In this document: positions 17,060 through 50,368 of the stretch, piece after piece
Layout: every line of letters begins with the position of its first letter
Numbering within the stretch: position 1 is the first letter of the stretch
Assembly: GCA_016927655.1 (NCBI GenBank)
Contig: JAFGMG010000012.1
Coordinates: 42,618-106,617 of the forward strand
Source of the DNA: Candidatus Dojkabacteria bacterium
Lineage (GTDB): Bacteria > Patescibacteriota > Dojkabacteria > B142 > JAFGMG01
Length of the DNA stretch: 64,000 nt
Direction of reading: 5' to 3'
Translations under genes and position numbers: made by a program
The notes under the pieces: model-generated
What the model was told of the DNA's origin: nothing
What the model saw: only the letters and a program-made list of their open reading frames with translations
The model's database searches: none

Positions 17060-18859
17060 TTATGTCAAATCTACCACCAGACCATCTGCAGCGTCTACCA
17101 GTTCTTTGCTTTTCATGATTATTGACTGGGTTTGGGTTCCGCAGTTGAATGCAGCTCGTTCCTGATCGAGTACATCATCGTCAAAATATGTATCAAGTCC
17201 CAGGATATTCCCAAATGGCGGGACACCTCCGACAACGAGCCCGAATCTGTCTTTTATCACCTGCGGATCTTCAAAGCTGTATCTCTGAGCGAGCAATATG
17301 GCCAGTTTCTTCATCTCAAGCTTTTTATTGCCCGGAAGGCAGACCATAATATTTTTCCCATCTTTTTCCCCTTTTAGAATTAGCGCTTTCACGCCCTCTT
17401 CAGGCATTGTACCTCGCACTCTCGCCGAATCTTCACTTGTCGGGGTTGGCTCGTGTTCCTGGTATTCGTATACAAAACCCCTCTTATCAAGGATGCTTTT
17501 AATCTTTGCAACAATATTTTCTTCACCTACTATAACCTCCTGCTTCAAGCCAATTGATGCAACTCTTTTTGTATCTGAAGGGAACAGAACTGCCTCACGA
17601 ATATTTTCAAGACCAAGCAACTGCATTGTAAATCTTTCCAATCCCAAACCAAATCCGCCATGTTTCGGCATTCCATATTTAAAAATTGATAGATAATCAG
17701 TGAAATCCGCAGGATCAAGCTCCTTCATCTTCAGGTTTTCAATCAGCTTCTCATAATTATCAATTCTCTGCCCGCCGCTGCTAACTTCAGCGCCATTGCA
17801 CAAAAGATCGCCATAATTGCAGACTTCTGGATTCTCATCATTTGGCATTGCATAGAATGCGCATTTCGATCTTGGAAACTGAGTCACAAAAACAAAGTCA
17901 ATTCCGTCTTTCTCTTTAACGTAATTACAAATAAATCTCTCGGCCTCCGGAGAAAGATCATTTTCATTACGTTCGTCCGTACCAGTTTCCTTGAAATAGA
18001 GCTCAAGTGCTTCTTTCAGAGTATATCTGGGAATTTTTACTTCGTCTTTAAGTACAGCAGAATTTTCGAACATTTTCAGTTCTTCTGCACATTCTTTCTG
18101 AACTTTTTTATAAATTTGCCTAATCACTTTTTCCTCCCATTCAAGAACATCTTCGAATTTTTCAATAAAGCCGATTTCAAACTCCAGCTGCGTTGCCTCT
18201 GTGATGTGCCTTCTCGTATTTGATTTCTCTGCCCGGAAGCATTTCAAAGTCCCAAAAACACGCTCATAAACTCCCACCATCATCTGTTTATAAAGCTGAT
18301 TTGACTGAGACAATTTCACATCGTGTCCAAAATAATTAACCGTAAAAAGCTCGGCACCACCTTCAGAAGAAGCATTTATAATTGCCGGCCCCATAAACTC
18401 AGTGAATCCATTTTCAATCAAAAACTCCCGATACGCTTCCAAAATTACCCCCTGGACTTTAAAAACCGCAGCAATTTTCTCATTTCGCAAAGTCAATGGT
18501 CTGTGATCTAGAATTGTATCCAGGCTTGCTCTGATTTCCGGCTTATTTACCTCGACAGGCCAAGGACTTGTAACGGGCACTTCAATATTTATCACCGGAT
18601 TGATAATCTCGGCAGCGGATTTGAATTGTGACGAAGCTTGTACATTTCCTTCAATCATTAACACACTTCCCGGCTGTAAATCCTTTACTTTTTCCAATTC
18701 CGCCTTGTCTTGTATTATCACCTGAGTAATCCCGCCTCGATCCCTGATGTGCATGAAATTCACTGCCCCTAGCATCCTTAATGAATGCATCCAGCCTCTA
18801 ATCAATACCTGTTCACCAATATGGGATTTCAATTCATTCGATAATACTCTTTCCATCAA
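17060..18859 (-). CDS. aspS: Aspartyl-tRNA synthetase (archaeal/class IIb type) with a fused C-terminal YbaK/ProX-like deacylase domain
   Basis: N-terminal OB fold. Flipping loop LSQSNQLYKQ, motif 2 FRAEKSNTRRHITEATQLEFE and motif 3 GGFGLGLERF. The last ~150 aa carry GLVVGGVPPFGN, matching the YbaK GYLVGGISPLG signature. Confidence 0.82.
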   Translation of the reverse strand: MMERVLSNELKSHIGEQVLIRGWMHSLRMLGAVNFMHIRDRGGITQVIIQDKAELEKVKDLQPGSVLMIEGNVQASSQFKSAAEIINPVINIEVPVTSPWPVEVNKPEIRASLDTILDHRPLTLRNEKIAAVFKVQGVILEAYREFLIENGFTEFMGPAIINASSEGGAELFTVNYFGHDVKLSQSNQLYKQMMVGVYERVFGTLKCFRAEKSNTRRHITEATQLEFEIGFIEKFEDVLEWEEKVIRQIYKKVQKECAEELKMFENSAVLKDEVKIPRYTLKEALELYFKETGTDERNENDLSPEAERFICNYVKEKDGIDFVFVTQFPRSKCAFYAMPNDENPEVCNYGDLLCNGAEVSSGGQRIDNYEKLIENLKMKELDPADFTDYLSIFKYGMPKHGGFGLGLERFTMQLLGLENIREAVLFPSDTKRVASIGLKQEVIVGEENIVAKIKSILDKRGFVYEYQEHEPTPTSEDSARVRGTMPEEGVKALILKGEKDGKNIMVCLPGNKKLEMKKLAILLAQRYSFEDPQVIKDRFGLVVGGVPPFGNILGLDTYFDDDVLDQERAAFNCGTQTQSIIMKSKELVDAADGLVVDLT

Positions 18860-39354: not shown

Positions 39355-41595
39355 CTAATATGTACAGCTTTCCTGACAGCCTTCAGTACAAGTCATCCCT
39401 GGAGGGCAGTAGAAATCACAATCATTAAAATCGCCGTTGTATTCATCACATTCACTTTCTTCAATTGAGAAACATTTGTTTTCAACAGCAACAAAAGAAC
39501 CCCCATAGTATCCACATATAACACCTGGGGCTGTGCTCCCTTCACCAGAAACACGAATGCTTAATTGACTTGTGCCCCCAGCACCATAGGATACAACCAG
39601 GAAAGTATTGTATGTCCGCACTGATGTGGGAATGAAACCAACTTCAACACTGCAACTTTCACCAGCAGCTATCGTCGGAGTACTACTTCCGCAAGGATTC
39701 GAAGCTCCTTCTGGATTTGTATCCAATGAGAAATTTGAGCTGTCAAGCAGGCTGATACCAGCTATTTCCATCTCCTGAGCAGTTTGATTGGTTATGGATA
39801 TTTCACGAGTGGCAGTTTGTCTTCCAGAAAGCAATGCAGAGAAATTCACAAGAGAGGAACTTGCCCTAACCTCTTCAGGTGAGGCTATACATTCGTACTT
39901 TTCATTGTAGGTTGATACGCCTGCATTGAAATCATTGCAGTCTTTATTATCTGGTATACCAGAAGGGCAAGTGACCGGCTTATTCAAGCTAAGACCCCAG
40001 TTATAATATCCGTCGCCGTCTCTATCCAGACAATCAATACTTCTCGAATTTGCATCAACAATTGGCAATATTAATCCATGCGTCCAGCCAAAGTTTGTGA
40101 TCGGAGTTTTCAAATTTACATATCCGTGATTTCCCCAGGTATTCCCCCAGCTGTTTTTGAATATCCAGACAGGTTCGTCATAAGAGTCAGTATACCAGCC
40201 GACAAGGACCATTGCGTGACTCCAGGAATAAATCCCTCCGCTAACCGGGCCCTGCTCAATTATCAGCTTTTTCAAGTTATCTTCTGTTTTATTTGTGAAA
40301 TCCACCCTTCCGCTGATTTTGATTCGCTCACTTGGGCTTGCACATTTTAAAGAACAAGAGAGATCTCTTGCTGAATATGAAAAGCAGGATTCATTTACTA
40401 CTCCATTGTTTTTAATATAATCCAACGTCAAGCTAGGCCATCCGCCGCTGCATGATCCGGCACCGCTGCAGGAAAGCATATCCTGTTCAGAAAGATCCAG
40501 ATTGACATGCTTATTGTAATAAAGATTAGCCAGAGATTCGGTTGCTCCAACCGCGGCAAACGCCCAGCAGGATCCGCAGCTCGCCTGGTTTTTGACCGCT
40601 GTTATCCATCCATTTCCGGTTTCATTTGAATCTGGATTGCCATCAAAATAAGGCGATGCAGGATTATTGGCCCCATGGACAGTTCTCCAGTCCCAGCTAG
40701 ATGCATAAATTGATGCTCCTTTTACATCACCGTTCATACTTCTTGTTGCCGATGCAAATAGGCCTAATACAGTTTCTGGCAGGTTCGTAATTATGCTTAC
40801 AAGCATAGGTCTTGTAGTAGGCGTTCGCCCACTTGATTCATCTACAACCACTTCCAGGACTCCTCCAACATAAAATTCTGCTCCTTGGAAATTCGGCAGC
40901 TCCTCGGAGTACAATTGAGATTTCTCTTCATAGCTGAGTTCGCCGAAAGCCGTTCTACCGGCCTGCCAGTCATATCCTTTTTCTTCAATCGAATCATTAA
41001 GCTCGGCAATTTTCTCATCAAGAACATCTTCTTTTTTCTGTTCGATTTGTGCCGCTTCAGCCGCAGTTGCCTCGCTCTGATTCATATTGACCTTTGTGAC
41101 TTCTAGACCAGCTCCGTTTTCTGTGTAGACTTCCAGGCTGGCTATTTTTGTTTCCCCAAGTAAACACGTTTCTTCACATTTTTCTTGGACACTGAACTCA
41201 CCCTGTCCATTTAGTAAATAATATGCTTCATAGACAAGATATTTCGTCCCATCATCTGAATAAAGAATTACTCTAGCTAAGCTGTCTTTATTTGGTAAAT
41301 TTACATCCGCATTGATTGTGAGGCCATATATTGTTGCGTCTTTTTCAATTTCGACATCCTGAGTATCACTTTCACTTGTAGGATCTTCTGTAGCAGCCGG
41401 GGTTCCTTCAGATAACTCAGCCTCAATTGATTCTTCTCCAACAGGGATGTCTTCTGGAGTTTGATCTGAATCTTTACCCGCATTGAATAGAAAATAAGCA
41501 AACAGTATTGCCAGTATCAGTAAAAGGTACAACTCCACTTCTAATCGGGGATTATTTTTGATTTCTTTTCTAAACTTTTGAAAGAAATTTGCCAT
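39355..41595 (-). CDS. Large membrane-anchored secreted protein with a papain-like C1 cysteine peptidase domain and Cys-rich C-terminal modules
   Basis: N-terminal TM. QASCGSCWAFAAVGATESL is the papain catalytic-Cys signature. Downstream His/Asn region; 746 aa; Cys-rich tail. Confidence 0.75.
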   Translation of the reverse strand: MANFFQKFRKEIKNNPRLEVELYLLLILAILFAYFLFNAGKDSDQTPEDIPVGEESIEAELSEGTPAATEDPTSESDTQDVEIEKDATIYGLTINADVNLPNKDSLARVILYSDDGTKYLVYEAYYLLNGQGEFSVQEKCEETCLLGETKIASLEVYTENGAGLEVTKVNMNQSEATAAEAAQIEQKKEDVLDEKIAELNDSIEEKGYDWQAGRTAFGELSYEEKSQLYSEELPNFQGAEFYVGGVLEVVVDESSGRTPTTRPMLVSIITNLPETVLGLFASATRSMNGDVKGASIYASSWDWRTVHGANNPASPYFDGNPDSNETGNGWITAVKNQASCGSCWAFAAVGATESLANLYYNKHVNLDLSEQDMLSCSGAGSCSGGWPSLTLDYIKNNGVVNESCFSYSARDLSCSLKCASPSERIKISGRVDFTNKTEDNLKKLIIEQGPVSGGIYSWSHAMVLVGWYTDSYDEPVWIFKNSWGNTWGNHGYVNLKTPITNFGWTHGLILPIVDANSRSIDCLDRDGDGYYNWGLSLNKPVTCPSGIPDNKDCNDFNAGVSTYNEKYECIASPEEVRASSSLVNFSALLSGRQTATREISITNQTAQEMEIAGISLLDSSNFSLDTNPEGASNPCGSSTPTIAAGESCSVEVGFIPTSVRTYNTFLVVSYGAGGTSQLSIRVSGEGSTAPGVICGYYGGSFVAVENKCFSIEESECDEYNGDFNDCDFYCPPGMTCTEGCQESCTY

Positions 41596-41660
41596 TGAGC
41601 GGAAAACTTGTTAGTTCTACTATACATATTTTTGAGGAAGGGGTAAAGGATTCGAAAAAG

Positions 41661-41732
41661 TGAGTCCGGGGGGACTCGAACCCCCAACCAATGGCTTAAA
41701 AGGCCACTGCTCTACCATTGAGCTACAGACCC
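41661..41732 (-). tRNA. tRNA-Lys (TTT)
   Basis: Reverse complement GGGTCTGTAGCTCAATGGTAGAGCAGTGGCCTTTTAAGCCATTGGTTGGGGGTTCGAGTCCCCCCGGACTCA. Anticodon loop CTTTTAA. CCA not encoded. Confidence 0.88.
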
Positions 41733-42004: not shown

Positions 42005-42712
42005 ATGCAGAGGAGCCTAGAAAAAACCAAGGACCTGGATCAAGACCTCATTACCTCCGAGCTTAGCTATCGCCGCCTGTTTGAAACCGCTCAAGATGGC
42101 ATACTTCTGGTCGATTTCAAAACTGGAATGATTCTTGATGCCAATCAATTCCTCATTGATATGCTCGGTTATTCCAAGGCCGATTTTCTAAAGAAGCACC
42201 TCTGGGAAATTGGAGCTTTTAAAGACATTGCCGCGTCAAAAGAAAATTTCTCCACATTAAGGGAAAAGAGATATGTACGCTTCGAAGATCTCCCCCTTGA
42301 AACAAAATCGGGCAAACACATTGATGTTGAGTTTGTAGCAAACGCCTACCAGGTCAATGACGCTACAATCATCCAATGCAATATCCGCGACATTACGGCT
42401 AGGAAAAAAATCGAAAAAACTCTTGAGGATAAAGAGGTTCTATACAGGCAGTTATTTGAAAACATGATTAGCGGAGTGGTTATCTATGAAACAAAGGATA
42501 AAGGCAAGACTTTTATAATAAAAGACTGCAATCATGCAACTGAAAAAATCGAGAAGGTAAAAAAGAATGAAATCATCGGCCGGAGTGTTGCCAAAGTATT
42601 TCCTGGGGTTAAAAATTTCGGGCTTTTCCGGGTTTTTCAAAGAGTATGGAAAACAGGAAAGGCTGAAAATTTCCCGATCTCTTTGTACAAAGACAATAGA
42701 ATTTCAGGATAG
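42005..42712 (+). CDS. PAS-domain protein; N-terminal part of a multi-PAS sensor histidine kinase, ending at an in-frame TAG
   Basis: Two PAS units. The stop at 42710-42712 is in the same frame as the downstream kinase ORF. Confidence 0.6.
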   Translation: MQRSLEKTKDLDQDLITSELSYRRLFETAQDGILLVDFKTGMILDANQFLIDMLGYSKADFLKKHLWEIGAFKDIAASKENFSTLREKRYVRFEDLPLETKSGKHIDVEFVANAYQVNDATIIQCNIRDITARKKIEKTLEDKEVLYRQLFENMISGVVIYETKDKGKTFIIKDCNHATEKIEKVKKNEIIGRSVAKVFPGVKNFGLFRVFQRVWKTGKAENFPISLYKDNRISG

Positions 42713-45415
42713 AGGAAGAATTTCGTTTATAAACTTCCCAATGGCAATCTTGTTGTAATTTACAGCGATATAACCGCCCAGAAAAAAGCAGAGAAAAAAA
42801 TAGAGCAGCTCTTAAAAACAACTACTGCAATTTATGAGACTTCCAGAATAATTTTTGAGAATTCGGATTCGGATAAATCTTTTAATAATTTGATTAAAAT
42901 CTTACCTAATTCATTTCAATTTCCAGAATTAATTTGTGTCAGAATTATTTACAACGGCAAAGAATACAAATCAGATAATTTCAAAGAAACGAAGCACAAA
43001 CTTATTCAGTATCTCAAAATCGATAGCCAAGAGCTGGGAGCTATAGAGGTATATTACCTAAAAAACAGAGGTTTCATTGATGAAGAAAAGGATATGATCA
43101 GCGAAGTTGGTTCTCAGATCGTGACTATCATCGAGCAAAAAAGAACACAGCAAAAACTAAAAGACAGCGAAGAAAAATATAGATTGTTATTTAACAACTC
43201 AAAAGATGCTTTGATGACGCTAGAGCCTCCTGATTGGAAATTTACTACCAGCAATCCCGCAATAAAAAAAATGTTTGGAATCAAAAGCGAAAAGGAATTT
43301 ACCTTCTTAAACCCATGGGAAATATCTCCAAAATACCAGCCTGATGGACAGCTCTCAAGTACAAAAGCCAAAAAGATGATTCAAAAAGCGCTTAAAGATG
43401 GCAGTAATTTTTTTGAATGGACTCATAAAAAGCTAGACGGAGAAAATTTCTATGCCACAGTATTACTAGTCAGAATATCATCCGGTAAAAAGAAGTTTCT
43501 TCAAGCCACGGTTCGAGATATTACTGAAGAAAAACACGCAAAATATTTAGCCAAAATTTCCGAACTTCGTTATCGTCGCCTATTCGAAACTGCCCAGGAC
43601 GGTATCCTAATACTGGATTATAAAACCGGAATGATTCTGGCCGCAAACAAGTTTCTCATGAATTTATTAGGTTATTCCAAAAAAGAGCTGCTGAAAAAAC
43701 ACTTCTGGGAGATAAGCTCATTTAAAGATATAGTGCCCTCGAAGAAAAAATTTGCGTCTATACGTAAGAAAAAGTCACTTCATTTTGAAGACCTCCCTCT
43801 TGAAACAAAAAGTGGGAAAAAGGTTGAAGTAGAGTTTGTCTCCACTATGTATCTTGTTGGAGAATCGAAAAGAATACATTGCAACATTCGAGATATTACT
43901 GCTAGAAGGAAGAGTGAGCGCGAAGCTCAAAAATTACTGCGCTTGAGTGAAGAAAAATTTTCCAAAGCCTTTCATACCTCACCATACGTCATGACAATTA
44001 CCGAGATGAAAACCGGCAAATTTATCGAGATTAATGAGGAGTTTACGAAATTAACAGGTTACAGCAGGGAAGAAACTCTTGCCAATTCGTCAATAGGACT
44101 TGGCGTGTGGAGCGACAAGGAAGATCGGGAGCTGATTGCAGCGAAACTTCTTGCAGGTCTGCCTGTTAATAACCAAGAATGCCAATTCAAAACTAAAAGC
44201 GGGGAGGAGAGAACCGGCTTGTACTCTGCTCAATTGATTGAACTTAACCAGGGATTATGCATTTTATCAAGTGTTACTGATATTACAGAACGCGAAAAGA
44301 CGCAGCGGTTAATTCACGATATTAAAAACAGAGACGAAGCACTGCTAGAATCAATAGGTGATGCCGTCTTTGCTACCGATGTTTCGGGGAAAATCCTGCT
44401 TTTTAACAAAATGGCTGAAAAAATGACCGGGAAATCTGCCACAGAGGTAATTGGTAAGCATTATAAAGAGGCAGTAACTTTTATCAGTGAAGATACCGGG
44501 AAACCTCACGAAGATTTTATCGTCAGTGCGGTGGATGAGGATAAAATAACGAAAATGGGCAGCCATGTAGAATTGATCCGCAAAGATGGTGTCAAAATAC
44601 CGGTAGCTGACTCGGCTGCTCCGATCAAAGACATGGAAGGTAAAATTATTGGCTGCGTCGTGGTTTTTCATGACGTGACTCAAGAACGCCTTGTGGATAG
44701 AGCCAAAACAGAATTTGTCTCACTTGCTTCACACCAGCTGCGAACCCCCTTATCTACAATCAACTGGTATGTGGAAATGCTTTTATCGCTGGATGTCGGG
44801 AATCTAACTCCGAAACAAAAACAATATAGTGAGCAGATCAGCAAAGCCAGCAGAAGAATGGTAGATCTGGTAAATGCTCTTTTAAATGTTTCCAGGCTGG
44901 AACTTGGAACATTTATGATCGAACCGAAACGAGTCAATATCAAAAAGACCGCGCAAGGATGCCTCAATGAGCTCAAGTCGAAGATTGTAAAGAAAAAGTT
45001 GAACGTTAGGCAGAGCTACAAAGGAGTTTCTTACATAAAAGCCGATCCTCAGCTCCTGACGATTATTTTCCAGAACCTTCTTTCAAATGCAATTAAATAT
45101 TCGAATAATAACGGGCGCGTCGGCCTAACAGTCAAAAAAGAAAAAAGTGGTATTTTGATAAAGATATCCGACGCTGGTATCGGAATACCCAAGCATCAGC
45201 AAAAGGGAATTTTCCAGAAACTCTTCCGAGCAGACAATGCAAAAACTCTTGACCCGGATGGCACTGGACTGGGATTGTATATTGTCAAACAAATTACTGA
45301 CTATACAGGAGGAGAGGTCTGGTTTAGATCTATTGAAAATAAGGGGACAACTTTTTATATAAGACTGCCTCTATCTGGGATGACAAAGAAGGTTGGCAGT
45401 AAATCACTAACTTAA
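42713..45415 (+). CDS. Multi-PAS sensor histidine kinase (HisKA + HATPase_c), continuous in frame with 42005..42712; the true start is unclear (track start 42890 is a TTG)
   Basis: Several PAS units, H-box SHQLRTPLSTI, and N/G boxes (NLLSNAIKYS, DAGIGIP, GTGLGLYIV). There is no stop between 42713 and 42890 in this frame. Confidence 0.7.
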   Translation, partial: RKNFVYKLPNGNLVVIYSDITAQKKAEKKIEQLLKTTTAIYETSRIIFENSDSDKSFNNLIKILPNSFQFPELICVRIIYNGKEYKSDNFKETKHKLIQYLKIDSQELGAIEVYYLKNRGFIDEEKDMISEVGSQIVTIIEQKRTQQKLKDSEEKYRLLFNNSKDALMTLEPPDWKFTTSNPAIKKMFGIKSEKEFTFLNPWEISPKYQPDGQLSSTKAKKMIQKALKDGSNFFEWTHKKLDGENFYATVLLVRISSGKKKFLQATVRDITEEKHAKYLAKISELRYRRLFETAQDGILILDYKTGMILAANKFLMNLLGYSKKELLKKHFWEISSFKDIVPSKKKFASIRKKKSLHFEDLPLETKSGKKVEVEFVSTMYLVGESKRIHCNIRDITARRKSEREAQKLLRLSEEKFSKAFHTSPYVMTITEMKTGKFIEINEEFTKLTGYSREETLANSSIGLGVWSDKEDRELIAAKLLAGLPVNNQECQFKTKSGEERTGLYSAQLIELNQGLCILSSVTDITEREKTQRLIHDIKNRDEALLESIGDAVFATDVSGKILLFNKMAEKMTGKSATEVIGKHYKEAVTFISEDTGKPHEDFIVSAVDEDKITKMGSHVELIRKDGVKIPVADSAAPIKDMEGKIIGCVVVFHDVTQERLVDRAKTEFVSLASHQLRTPLSTINWYVEMLLSLDVGNLTPKQKQYSEQISKASRRMVDLVNALLNVSRLELGTFMIEPKRVNIKKTAQGCLNELKSKIVKKKLNVRQSYKGVSYIKADPQLLTIIFQNLLSNAIKYSNNNGRVGLTVKKEKSGILIKISDAGIGIPKHQQKGIFQKLFRADNAKTLDPDGTGLGLYIVKQITDYTGGEVWFRSIENKGTTFYIRLPLSGMTKKVGSKSLT

Positions 45416-45432
45416 CTTATTAATAATTTATT

Positions 45433-45804
45433 ATGAAAAAAACAATCCTTCTTATTGATGATGAGCCGGCTTTACTGGCTGCCCTTGTTGACAAATTTTC
45501 ACGAGCTGGATTTGACATTATCAGTGCAGAAAACGGGGAATTGGGCCTGGAATCTGCTCTCGAGAATAAACCTGACCTTATCCTTTTAGATATCATTATG
45601 CCGGTTATGGATGGGATAACTATGCTTAGCAAGCTGCGGACAGACCCCTGGGGAAAGAAAGCCAAGGTAATACTGCTGACGAATTTATCCTACCCTTTGA
45701 AGCCTCCTGAGGGCCTAACTAAAGGAATAAGAGGCTATTTAGTCAAATCTGACTGGCAGATTGAAGATGTGGTGAGTAAAGTCAGCAAGGAACTAGGGGT
45801 ATAA
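45433..45804 (+). CDS. Stand-alone response regulator receiver (CheY-like)
   Basis: ILLIDDEP...DLILLDIIMPVMDG with the phospho-acceptor Asp context. 123 aa. Confidence 0.8.
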   Translation: MKKTILLIDDEPALLAALVDKFSRAGFDIISAENGELGLESALENKPDLILLDIIMPVMDGITMLSKLRTDPWGKKAKVILLTNLSYPLKPPEGLTKGIRGYLVKSDWQIEDVVSKVSKELGV

Positions 45805-48481: not shown

Positions 48482-50368
48482 CTACGAAGTCTTCAGTGCC
48501 TCCAAAAAAGCCTCCTTTGGAATTTCGACCTTCCCAAACATTTTCATTCTCTTCTTTCCCTTTTTCTGCTTTTCAAGAAGCTTTTTCTTTCTAGTCACGT
48601 CACCACCATATAGCTTAGCAGTTACATCTTTTTTGTAGGCATCAATAGTCTCTCTTGCAATTACTTTCCCTCCAATAGCAGACTGGATTGGCACTTTGAA
48701 CTGCTGTCTTGGAATTATATCTTTTAACTTTGCTACAACTGCTTTGCCTTTCGCAAAAGAATTGTCCCTGTGAGTTAGAAATGAAAGTGCTTCCACCTCC
48801 AGGTAATTAACCAAGATGCTCACTTTGACAATATCAGAAGTCCTGTATTCATAAAACTCATAATCCATCGAAGCATAACCCTGACTGATTGATTTCAATT
48901 TATCAAAATAGTTCACAATTATTTCTCCAGTTGGAATTTCATACTTGAGTATTACGTGCTTTTTACCTTTAATCGTTTCATCCCCAGTCACATATTCCAT
49001 TAATTTATACACACCTCTTGCTGCTTGTGAGATTTCCATAATAGATCCGATGTATTCTTCCGGAGTGATTATTTCTAATTTAACCCAAGGTTCTTTAACT
49101 TCTTCAATGAGTGACATGTCCGGGAATTCCGCAGCATTTCTAATATTTAAATACTCGCCTTCAATATTTGCCACGTTAAGATTTGGAATTTTTGAATAAT
49201 CCTTCGTAGTAAGTTTGATTTTGTATTCAACAGTAGGAGTGGTAGAAATAAGCGAAACGTCAAATTCCCTTTCAAGCCTTTCCTGAGTAATTTCAAGATG
49301 TAAAAGCCCAAGGAATCCGCAGACAAAACCAGATCCAAGAACGGGAGAATTCTCCCTTTGGACGGTCAAGGCTGAATCATTCAAGGCAAGCTTCTCAATC
49401 GCATCTGCTAATTCTTCAAATTCATCACTCTCAATAGGATATAAAGAGGCATATACCATTGGTTTTGGAGGATGATAGCCGGGAAGCGGATCAATGTCTT
49501 TATTGCTTTGATAATCAGAATTCAAAACTATAGTATCTCCGATATGAATTGCTTTGATATCTTTGAGCCCCGTTGCTATGTAGCCGACCTCGCCAAGATC
49601 TATCTGCCTATCCTTTTGCATTCTTGGGAGCAGGTAGCCGATTTCAATTGGTTCAATTTCAGTCTTTGTTTCAATTGTGTGCAGATTTTCATCAGCGTTG
49701 ATCTCCCCCTCCATGACTTTGACCATTGCCACTACACCTTTGTGCTCATCATAGAATGAATCAAATATCAGCGCCTTTGTGACGCCATTATTTGCAGGTT
49801 CTGGAGGCGGGACTTTTTTTACAATCATGTCTAAAAGGTTTTCCACTCCGAGACCAGTCTTACCGGAAGTTTCGACGATTTCATCCGGATCAAACCCAAA
49901 AGTGGCTATCAATTCTTCTTTTGTGCTATCGACATCAGCGCTTGGCAAATCGACTTTGTTGATAACAGGAATGATCGTAAGATTGTGTTCGAGTGCTTTG
50001 TAGACAGTAGTAAGAGTTTGAGCTTGAATGCCCTGAGTCGCATCGACAAGTAATATCGCGCCTTCCGAGGCTGCAAGCGATCTGGAAACTTCATATGAGA
50101 AATCCACATGCCCAGGCGTGTCGATGAGATTTAGAACATAGTCTTTGTAGTGCATCCTCACTGTCTGGAGTTTGATTGTAATGCCCCTCTCCTGTTCCAA
50201 TTCAAGTGTATCAAGCATTCTATCTTTGCTTTCGCGCTTCTCCACTGCCCCGGTAAATTCCATAATTCGATCAGCCAAAGTCGATTTGCCATGATCGATA
50301 TGTGCAATGATCGAGAAATTCCGAATTTTATTGAGTGCTTTTGTTTTTTCCAGGTCCAAATTTGCCAT
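48482..50368 (-). CDS. lepA: Elongation factor 4
   Basis: NFSIIAHIDHGKSTLADRI G-domain, DTPGHVDF, NKVD. 628 aa. Confidence 0.92.
   Translation of the reverse strand: MANLDLEKTKALNKIRNFSIIAHIDHGKSTLADRIMEFTGAVEKRESKDRMLDTLELEQERGITIKLQTVRMHYKDYVLNLIDTPGHVDFSYEVSRSLAASEGAILLVDATQGIQAQTLTTVYKALEHNLTIIPVINKVDLPSADVDSTKEELIATFGFDPDEIVETSGKTGLGVENLLDMIVKKVPPPEPANNGVTKALIFDSFYDEHKGVVAMVKVMEGEINADENLHTIETKTEIEPIEIGYLLPRMQKDRQIDLGEVGYIATGLKDIKAIHIGDTIVLNSDYQSNKDIDPLPGYHPPKPMVYASLYPIESDEFEELADAIEKLALNDSALTVQRENSPVLGSGFVCGFLGLLHLEITQERLEREFDVSLISTTPTVEYKIKLTTKDYSKIPNLNVANIEGEYLNIRNAAEFPDMSLIEEVKEPWVKLEIITPEEYIGSIMEISQAARGVYKLMEYVTGDETIKGKKHVILKYEIPTGEIIVNYFDKLKSISQGYASMDYEFYEYRTSDIVKVSILVNYLEVEALSFLTHRDNSFAKGKAVVAKLKDIIPRQQFKVPIQSAIGGKVIARETIDAYKKDVTAKLYGGDVTRKKKLLEKQKKGKKRMKMFGKVEIPKEAFLEALKTS

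Follow-up and report, generated by a model that had tools for sequence, protein, structure and literature searches.

The closest described relatives of the gene considered here are the multi-PAS histidine kinases of the HisKA class, such as the FixL-like kinases and LOV-PAS-HK; PAS S-box kinases are frequent in methanogens, Chloroflexota and the Candidate Phyla Radiation (CPR). Two further kinds of system invite comparison when such a gene contains an in-frame stop codon. In recoding systems the stop is read as sense, as when UAG is decoded as pyrrolysine, when UGA is decoded as glycine in Gracilibacteria/Absconditabacteria, when a suppressor transfer RNA (tRNA) is present, or when adenosine-to-inosine (A-to-I) editing in fungi changes UAG to UGG. 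In a young unitary pseudogene or null allele, a nonsense mutation leaves one gene annotated as two open reading frames (ORFs). Here we describe a multi-PAS kinase gene interrupted by a single TAG in a 64-kb stretch of DNA from a Candidatus Dojkabacteria bacterium (the window, analysed over its whole length). We conclude that a recent TGG to TAG nonsense mutation probably truncates this sensor kinase after 235 residues, as an ordinary case of gene inactivation.

The locus resembles the multi-PAS HisKA kinases in its tandem PAS domains, the H-box in HisKA, the HATPase_c domain and the adjacent receiver. It differs from them in being interrupted at codon 236 and in its second PAS domain (PAS2), which belongs to a divergent subfamily below the Pfam cut-offs. 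With the recoding systems it shares an in-frame stop where a sense codon is expected; in contrast to them, it is a single gene with a stop that is not conserved, TAG is a normal terminator in the window, no stimulatory structure was found and no suppressor tRNA is present within the window. The likeness is closest to a nonsense-mutated gene annotated as two ORFs: the stop is one transition away from a sense codon, the homologues are uninterrupted, there is no restart codon and the downstream sequence is intact. At the level of sequence, we found no material difference from that class.

The interrupted reading frame

The frame from 42005 to 45415 on the plus strand comprises 1137 codons (1136 and a terminal TAA), and its sole internal stop is the TAG at 42710-42712, codon 236. 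The ORF at 42005..42712 (235 amino acids, aa; ATG start) is in frame with that at 42890..45415 (841 aa, TTG start). An earlier reading of the sequence (the original prediction) had reported these same-frame ORFs, a frame of about 1130 codons and the TAG as its only interruption, and translation reproduced its coordinates exactly, as well as the peptide that it had quoted around the stop, ...FPISLYKDNRISG-stop-RKNFVYKLPNGNLVVIYSDITAQKKAEKKIEQL. The features of the locus are as follows.

42005..45415, plus strand: whole interrupted frame of a multi-PAS sensor histidine kinase, from translation and from matches to the Pfam PAS families, HisKA and HATPase_c
42005..42709, plus strand: 5' fragment of 235 aa (MBN1332032.1), with PAS1 (residues ~22-132) and the first ~90 residues of PAS2, without the strands H-beta and I-beta; truncation point from the P0039 model
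42710..42712, plus strand: in-frame TAG at a conserved Trp codon; from homologous proteins and loci, the ancestral codon would be TGG, with G>A at 42711
42713..42889, plus strand: 59 in-frame codons without ATG, GTG or TTG, coding for the last, conserved part of PAS2 (RKNFVYKLPNGNLVVIYSDIT...) and a linker; untranslated in the two-gene annotation
42890..45415, plus strand: annotated downstream ORF of 841 aa (MBN1332033.1, P0001), with further PAS domains, HisKA at 44702-44905 and HATPase_c at 45044-45376; its TTG start lies within a weakly GAF-like module
45433..45804, plus strand: receiver-only response regulator of 123 aa (Pfam Response_reg, PF00072, E = 2.1e-19)

The frame 3' of the TAG is open for 901 codons and contains no second defect. 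Because the other two frames hold 71 and 86 stops across 42005-45415, an open frame of this length is far beyond chance and is coding. In the joined protein, Pfam identified PAS_9 (E = 1.7e-55, in five stretches), PAS, PAS_8 and PAS_4, followed by HisKA and HATPase_c. The HisKA match (PF00512, E = 1.4e-15) covers residues 900-967 and includes an H-box with the conserved histidine, SLASHQLRTPL. The match to HATPase_c, the GHKL ATPase catalytic domain (PF02518, E = 3.4e-26), covers residues 1014-1124 and positions 2-110 of the 111 in the profile. The response regulator begins 17 nt past the kinase stop and is likely the operon partner of the kinase. The locus is a disrupted member of the HisKA-class two-component sensor histidine kinases: the domains are present, and the frame that would join them in one polypeptide is broken at codon 236. 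NCBI lists the two parts as separate entries on a contig of 120,433 bp, both under the name 'PAS domain S-box protein [Candidatus Dojkabacteria bacterium]'.

The kinase carries an internal duplication, involving PAS1 and one of the later PAS domains, in which 42281-42336 and 43784-43839 (56 nt) are 79% identical and the encoded peptides, LRYRRLFETAQDGILILD... and FEDLPLETKSGK..., are nearly so. Recombination or misassembly at the stop by way of this duplication was considered and rejected, since copies of 56 nt at 79% identity are too diverged.

Homologues at the stop position

Residues 1-515 of the joined protein, used as the query of a protein search, matched thousands of multi-PAS proteins, 120 of which were retrieved. 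Local BLAST of PAS2 against these 120 yielded ten true PAS2 homologues (E = 1e-40 to 1e-56, 44-62% identity) whose alignments run continuously across the stop. All ten have Trp at the stop position, which forms an invariant alignment column in the context G-W-R/K-E/Q-N; P0035, for example, reads 'KDKRIFGWRENFVYKLPNGNIV' where the window reads 'KDNRISG-stop-RKNFVYKLPNGNLV'. The proteins P0033, P0035, P0037 and P0038 each combine, in one polypeptide, the PAS1-PAS2 N-terminus and the HisKA/HATPase_c core as they occur in the window.

Protein-guided scans of genome and metagenome contig collections added 27 loci, all but one of which span the stop site. The aligned codon in these 26 loci is TGG in 23, TTG in one, AGC in one and TGA in one, and the PAS2 domain lies in a single uninterrupted frame (156-1088 codons) in 25. 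With Trp in every homologous protein and TGG in nearly all of the loci, a single G>A transition separates the TAG of the window from the codon of the family. The original prediction had suggested looking for a sense codon in relatives, and this is what they carry. It had named as contrary evidence a family consistently divided into two genes, and the family proved to be otherwise.

The TGA was found in a homologous PAS gene of another organism (locus L024; Ga0190345_1000482, 135-1700), at the same conserved Trp codon. That gene breaks up into frameshifted fragments of HD-GYP and GGDEF, whereas code 11 gives an intact GlnRS gene next to it. We considered this TGA as a conserved regulatory stop and ruled it out, as what is left at the locus is a remnant with several disruptions beside an intact GlnRS. 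Judged by its sequence it is a decaying pseudogene, in which the TGA reflects decay and not conservation. Only about five codons in PAS2 can become stops by a GC>AT transition; TGG is among these, and by two routes, so recurrence at this codon is unsurprising.

Closer relatives were sought as well. An exact-pattern scan of the genome contig collection with ATTTCAGGATNGAGGAAGAATTTCG, the pattern of a strain-level TGG allele, gave no match, and as a source of closer strains the protein-guided scans of genome and metagenome contigs gave relatives at 40-64% identity only. The gene contexts of P0033 and P0037 differ from that of the window, so that no argument from synteny is possible.

Position of the stop in PAS2

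On its own, PAS2 matched PAS_9 (E = 4e-4) and PAS_4 (E = 1.6e-3), both under the curated cut-offs, as a divergent PAS domain. The PAS_4 alignment takes in positions 17-109 of the 110 in the profile and continues past the stop. Structure was assessed on an AlphaFold2 model of P0039, a homologue at 60% identity, made with an alignment of relatives; the model is thus of the homologue and not of the window sequence. Its mean predicted local distance difference test score (pLDDT) was 81, and ~82-94 across the equivalent of PAS2. The strands of PAS2 in P0039 (43-50 and 55-61, then after a helical segment 107-115, 120-129 and 135-141) follow the canonical PAS order, and Foldseek matched the model to the solved PAS tandems of FixL, PpsR and LOV-PAS-HK with E ~1e-13. 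The domain that contains the stop is therefore predicted to be a PAS domain, with a five-stranded antiparallel beta-sheet and flanking helices.

The conserved Trp is W122 of P0039, at the start of the fourth of the five beta-strands (residues 120-129, H-beta). Because W122 opens H-beta, the PAS2 of the 235-aa product would be without the last two of the five strands of the sheet, and a domain cut short in this way would probably not fold. From the letters alone, the original prediction had placed the stop midway through a PAS fold, and the PAS_4 alignment, the homologues at 44-62% identity that cross the stop and the P0039 model all agree with it.

The sequence downstream of the stop

The first in-frame ATG, GTG or TTG after the TAG is the TTG at 42890, 59 codons on. 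The intervening stretch codes for the conserved last part of PAS2 and a linker, and the TTG itself is inside the next module. Since no start is available for 59 codons, the two-gene annotation (235 + 841 aa) orphans conserved coding sequence. A promoter and terminator scan revealed no promoter-like site between 42713 and 42890. Shine-Dalgarno-like motifs are nearly absent before the starts of the ~55 ORFs in the window, where the upstream regions are AT-rich, and the lack of one at 42890 is for this reason uninformative.

The module that follows PAS2 and precedes the next PAS domain (42830-43210, residues ~275-400) gave weak matches to the C-terminal parts of GAF_2 and GAF_3 (E ~0.08-0.1). A query of PAS2 plus the module (residues 1-262) was matched in full by tblastn in four loci (L002, L009, L010 and L022), one of them in a metagenome-assembled genome (MAG) of Atribacterota.

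Identity to the ten homologues is 55.8% before the stop, compared to 53.6% in the ~30 residues after it. As conservation is much the same on either side of the stop and 901 codons are intact, the change is either recent or not real.

Use of TAG in the window

Stop codons were counted for those ORFs that do not overlap and that encode 99 aa or more (300 nt with the stop), 55 in all. TAA ends 21 of these, TAG 18 and TGA 16. Five conserved genes end in TAG, namely lepA, gpmI, an MsbA-like ABC exporter, a flavoenzyme of the aminoacetone oxidase family and a dimethylargininase-like gene, and their profile alignments reach to within 1-4 residues of the C-terminus. In lepA (48482..50368, minus strand) the TIGR01393 profile aligns over 2-594 of its 595 positions and reaches residue 627 of 628. 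The original prediction had taken TAG to be a normal stop in lepA, which the alignment to the end of that gene bears out, and had called a genome-wide reassignment unlikely; with one third of the ORFs ending in TAG, reassignment is excluded as far as the window allows.

Signals that might promote reading of the UAG were also sought. ARAGORN and Rfam identified only tRNA-Cys, tRNA-Leu(UAA) and tRNA-Lys(UUU) in the 64-kb window, without a suppressor tRNA (CUA), and no pyl genes were found there. For the 141 nt that surround and follow the stop, predicted folding was not better than that of shuffled sequences (z = -0.84), and the UAG lay outside a loop. An A follows the internal TAG, and genuine TAG stops in the window are likewise most often followed by A. 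There is no UACG motif of the TadA type at the stop site, and neither Rfam nor the promoter and terminator scan gave anything relevant to the stop. Thus a readthrough-promoting context or suppressor tRNA, which the original prediction had proposed to look for, was not found within the window. No other interrupted gene was found in the 64 kb, in which the remaining same-frame neighbour pairs, such as mraZ and rsmH, are ordinary. A literature search for histidine kinase genes of MAGs with premature stops gave nothing relevant. Recoding described for this phylum, according to a review, is of UGA to Gly in the Gracilibacteria/SR1 lineage only (PMC13293708).

Alternative explanations

If the TAG had arisen in assembly or base calling, or came from a minority variant, the dominant genotype would have TGG and an intact kinase of 1136 aa. 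An intact gene would look much like what is seen here, with the downstream frame whole and the orphaned codons conserved like the rest; the gene is also the sole interrupted one in 64 kb, and the sequence is a MAG from a metagenome, in which mixed strains are frequent. We nevertheless consider this, the main rival of the reading favoured below, unlikely. A Logan contig of run SRR13394437 matches the window at 100% identity across 6,010 bp, the TAG included, and the recovery of the same base in an independent assembly argues against an artefact of the assembler. The Logan and public assemblies are probably from the same reads, so the match speaks to the assembler and not to a minor variant, and a minority allele or a read-level problem shared by both is still compatible with it. 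(No mention of SRR13394437 or of the protein accessions was found in the literature.) The site is neither a homopolymer nor a repeat, and substitution errors are rare in short-read consensus sequences, which we also count against an artefact.

Two other explanations accept the base and give the locus a function. The mutation might have produced a working pair, a 235-aa PAS protein and a shortened kinase translated from TTG 42890 or later, as the two NCBI entries imply. The 841-aa ORF retains several complete PAS domains together with HisKA and HATPase_c, and the general scarcity of Shine-Dalgarno motifs means that their lack at 42890 does not speak against initiation there. A functional split is nonetheless quite improbable, given that the stop falls within a domain rather than between domains and removes H-beta and I-beta, that 59 conserved codons are orphaned with the TTG inside the GAF-like module, that there is no promoter-like site ahead of it and that no uninterrupted homologue is divided at this point. 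Programmed recoding or readthrough of the UAG, whether by a suppressor tRNA, by pyrrolysine, in a leaky context or by A-to-I editing to UIG (where I is inosine; UIG is read as Trp), would give a conditional full-length kinase. In its favour, the frame is unbroken before and after the UAG, and L024 has a stop at the same codon. Against this stand the regular use of TAG as a terminator, conserved genes included; the tRNA content of the window and the lack of any other gene with an in-frame stop; the absence of the stop from homologues apart from the decayed L024; the ordinary RNA folding, following base and editing context; and the review, which describes recoding in the phylum for UGA only. We regard recoding as very improbable. 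Its most elaborate form, in which the UAG would be corrected or bypassed at the level of RNA or translation so that the short PAS protein is the default and the full-length kinase conditional, a regulatory stop in a CPR bacterium, is scarcely credible.

A probable nonsense mutation

The reading that we favour is a recent nonsense mutation. The stop is one substitution from a conserved codon, the homologues are single genes and there is no independent downstream start, which together, on sequence grounds, are the marks of a pseudogene or null allele. Of the three options that the original prediction had left side by side, the nonsense mutation is supported by the Trp residues and TGG codons of the homologues, by their being single genes and by the lack of a start for 59 codons; readthrough or recoding gained no positive support, and a sequencing error became less likely in light of the Logan assembly. 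We infer that the base is real in the DNA of the organism and that the gene is functionally inactivated.

The stretch from 42005 to 45415 would formerly have been one gene, encoding a cytoplasmic protein with PAS1, PAS2, the GAF-like module, several more PAS domains, HisKA and HATPase_c, in an operon with the receiver-only response regulator. A single G>A transition at 42711 would have changed the conserved Trp codon from TGG to TAG. Translation from the ATG at 42005 would now end after 235 residues, giving PAS1 and a PAS2 short of the final two beta-strands, with the kinase core missing. No full-length kinase would be made, save for the trace of near-cognate readthrough that may occur at any stop.

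Several points weigh against a recent nonsense mutation. The base at 42711 comes from assemblies, and a consensus error or minority allele is compatible with it. The intact downstream frame of 901 codons would be equally expected if the full-length protein were still made. The tRNA search covered 64 kb of the genome only. Finally, no close syntenic orthologue was found, and the best full-length relative is 43% identical, so that the ancestral TGG follows from conservation in the family and not from a sister strain.

The best reading is of an ordinary gene-inactivating mutation or a base-call issue and not a recoding signal. Its biological weight is small, as another case of gene loss, or of null alleles at strain level, among CPR bacteria with their reduced genomes. 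It carries a caveat for annotation: MBN1332032.1 and MBN1332033.1 would be pieces of one disrupted kinase gene, to be flagged as a pseudogene or as a single interrupted coding sequence. Were the full-length protein shown to be made, the locus would become a case of stop-codon bypass in Patescibacteria.

Neighbouring genes and other observations

The tRNA-Lys(UUU) gene lies upstream of the kinase gene on the opposite strand, at 41660-41732. Just upstream of this tRNA gene, at 39355-41595 on the minus strand, is a gene for a protein of 746 aa with a long acidic N-terminal region and a Cys-rich C-terminus. Judged by eye alone, its motifs (...NQASCGSCWAFA...) resemble the core of a papain-family (C1) cysteine protease.

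Elsewhere in the window, the 599-aa protein encoded at 17060-18859 on the minus strand is a fusion. Its residues 1-433 match the full profile of the non-discriminating aspartyl-tRNA synthetase (NF003483). Its C-terminal part (residues 455-598) is a deacylase of the YbaK/EbsC type, a Cys-tRNA(Pro) deacylase (TIGR00011, profile positions 5-151 of 152). An aminoacyl-tRNA synthetase is thus joined in this protein to a trans-editing domain of the free-standing type.

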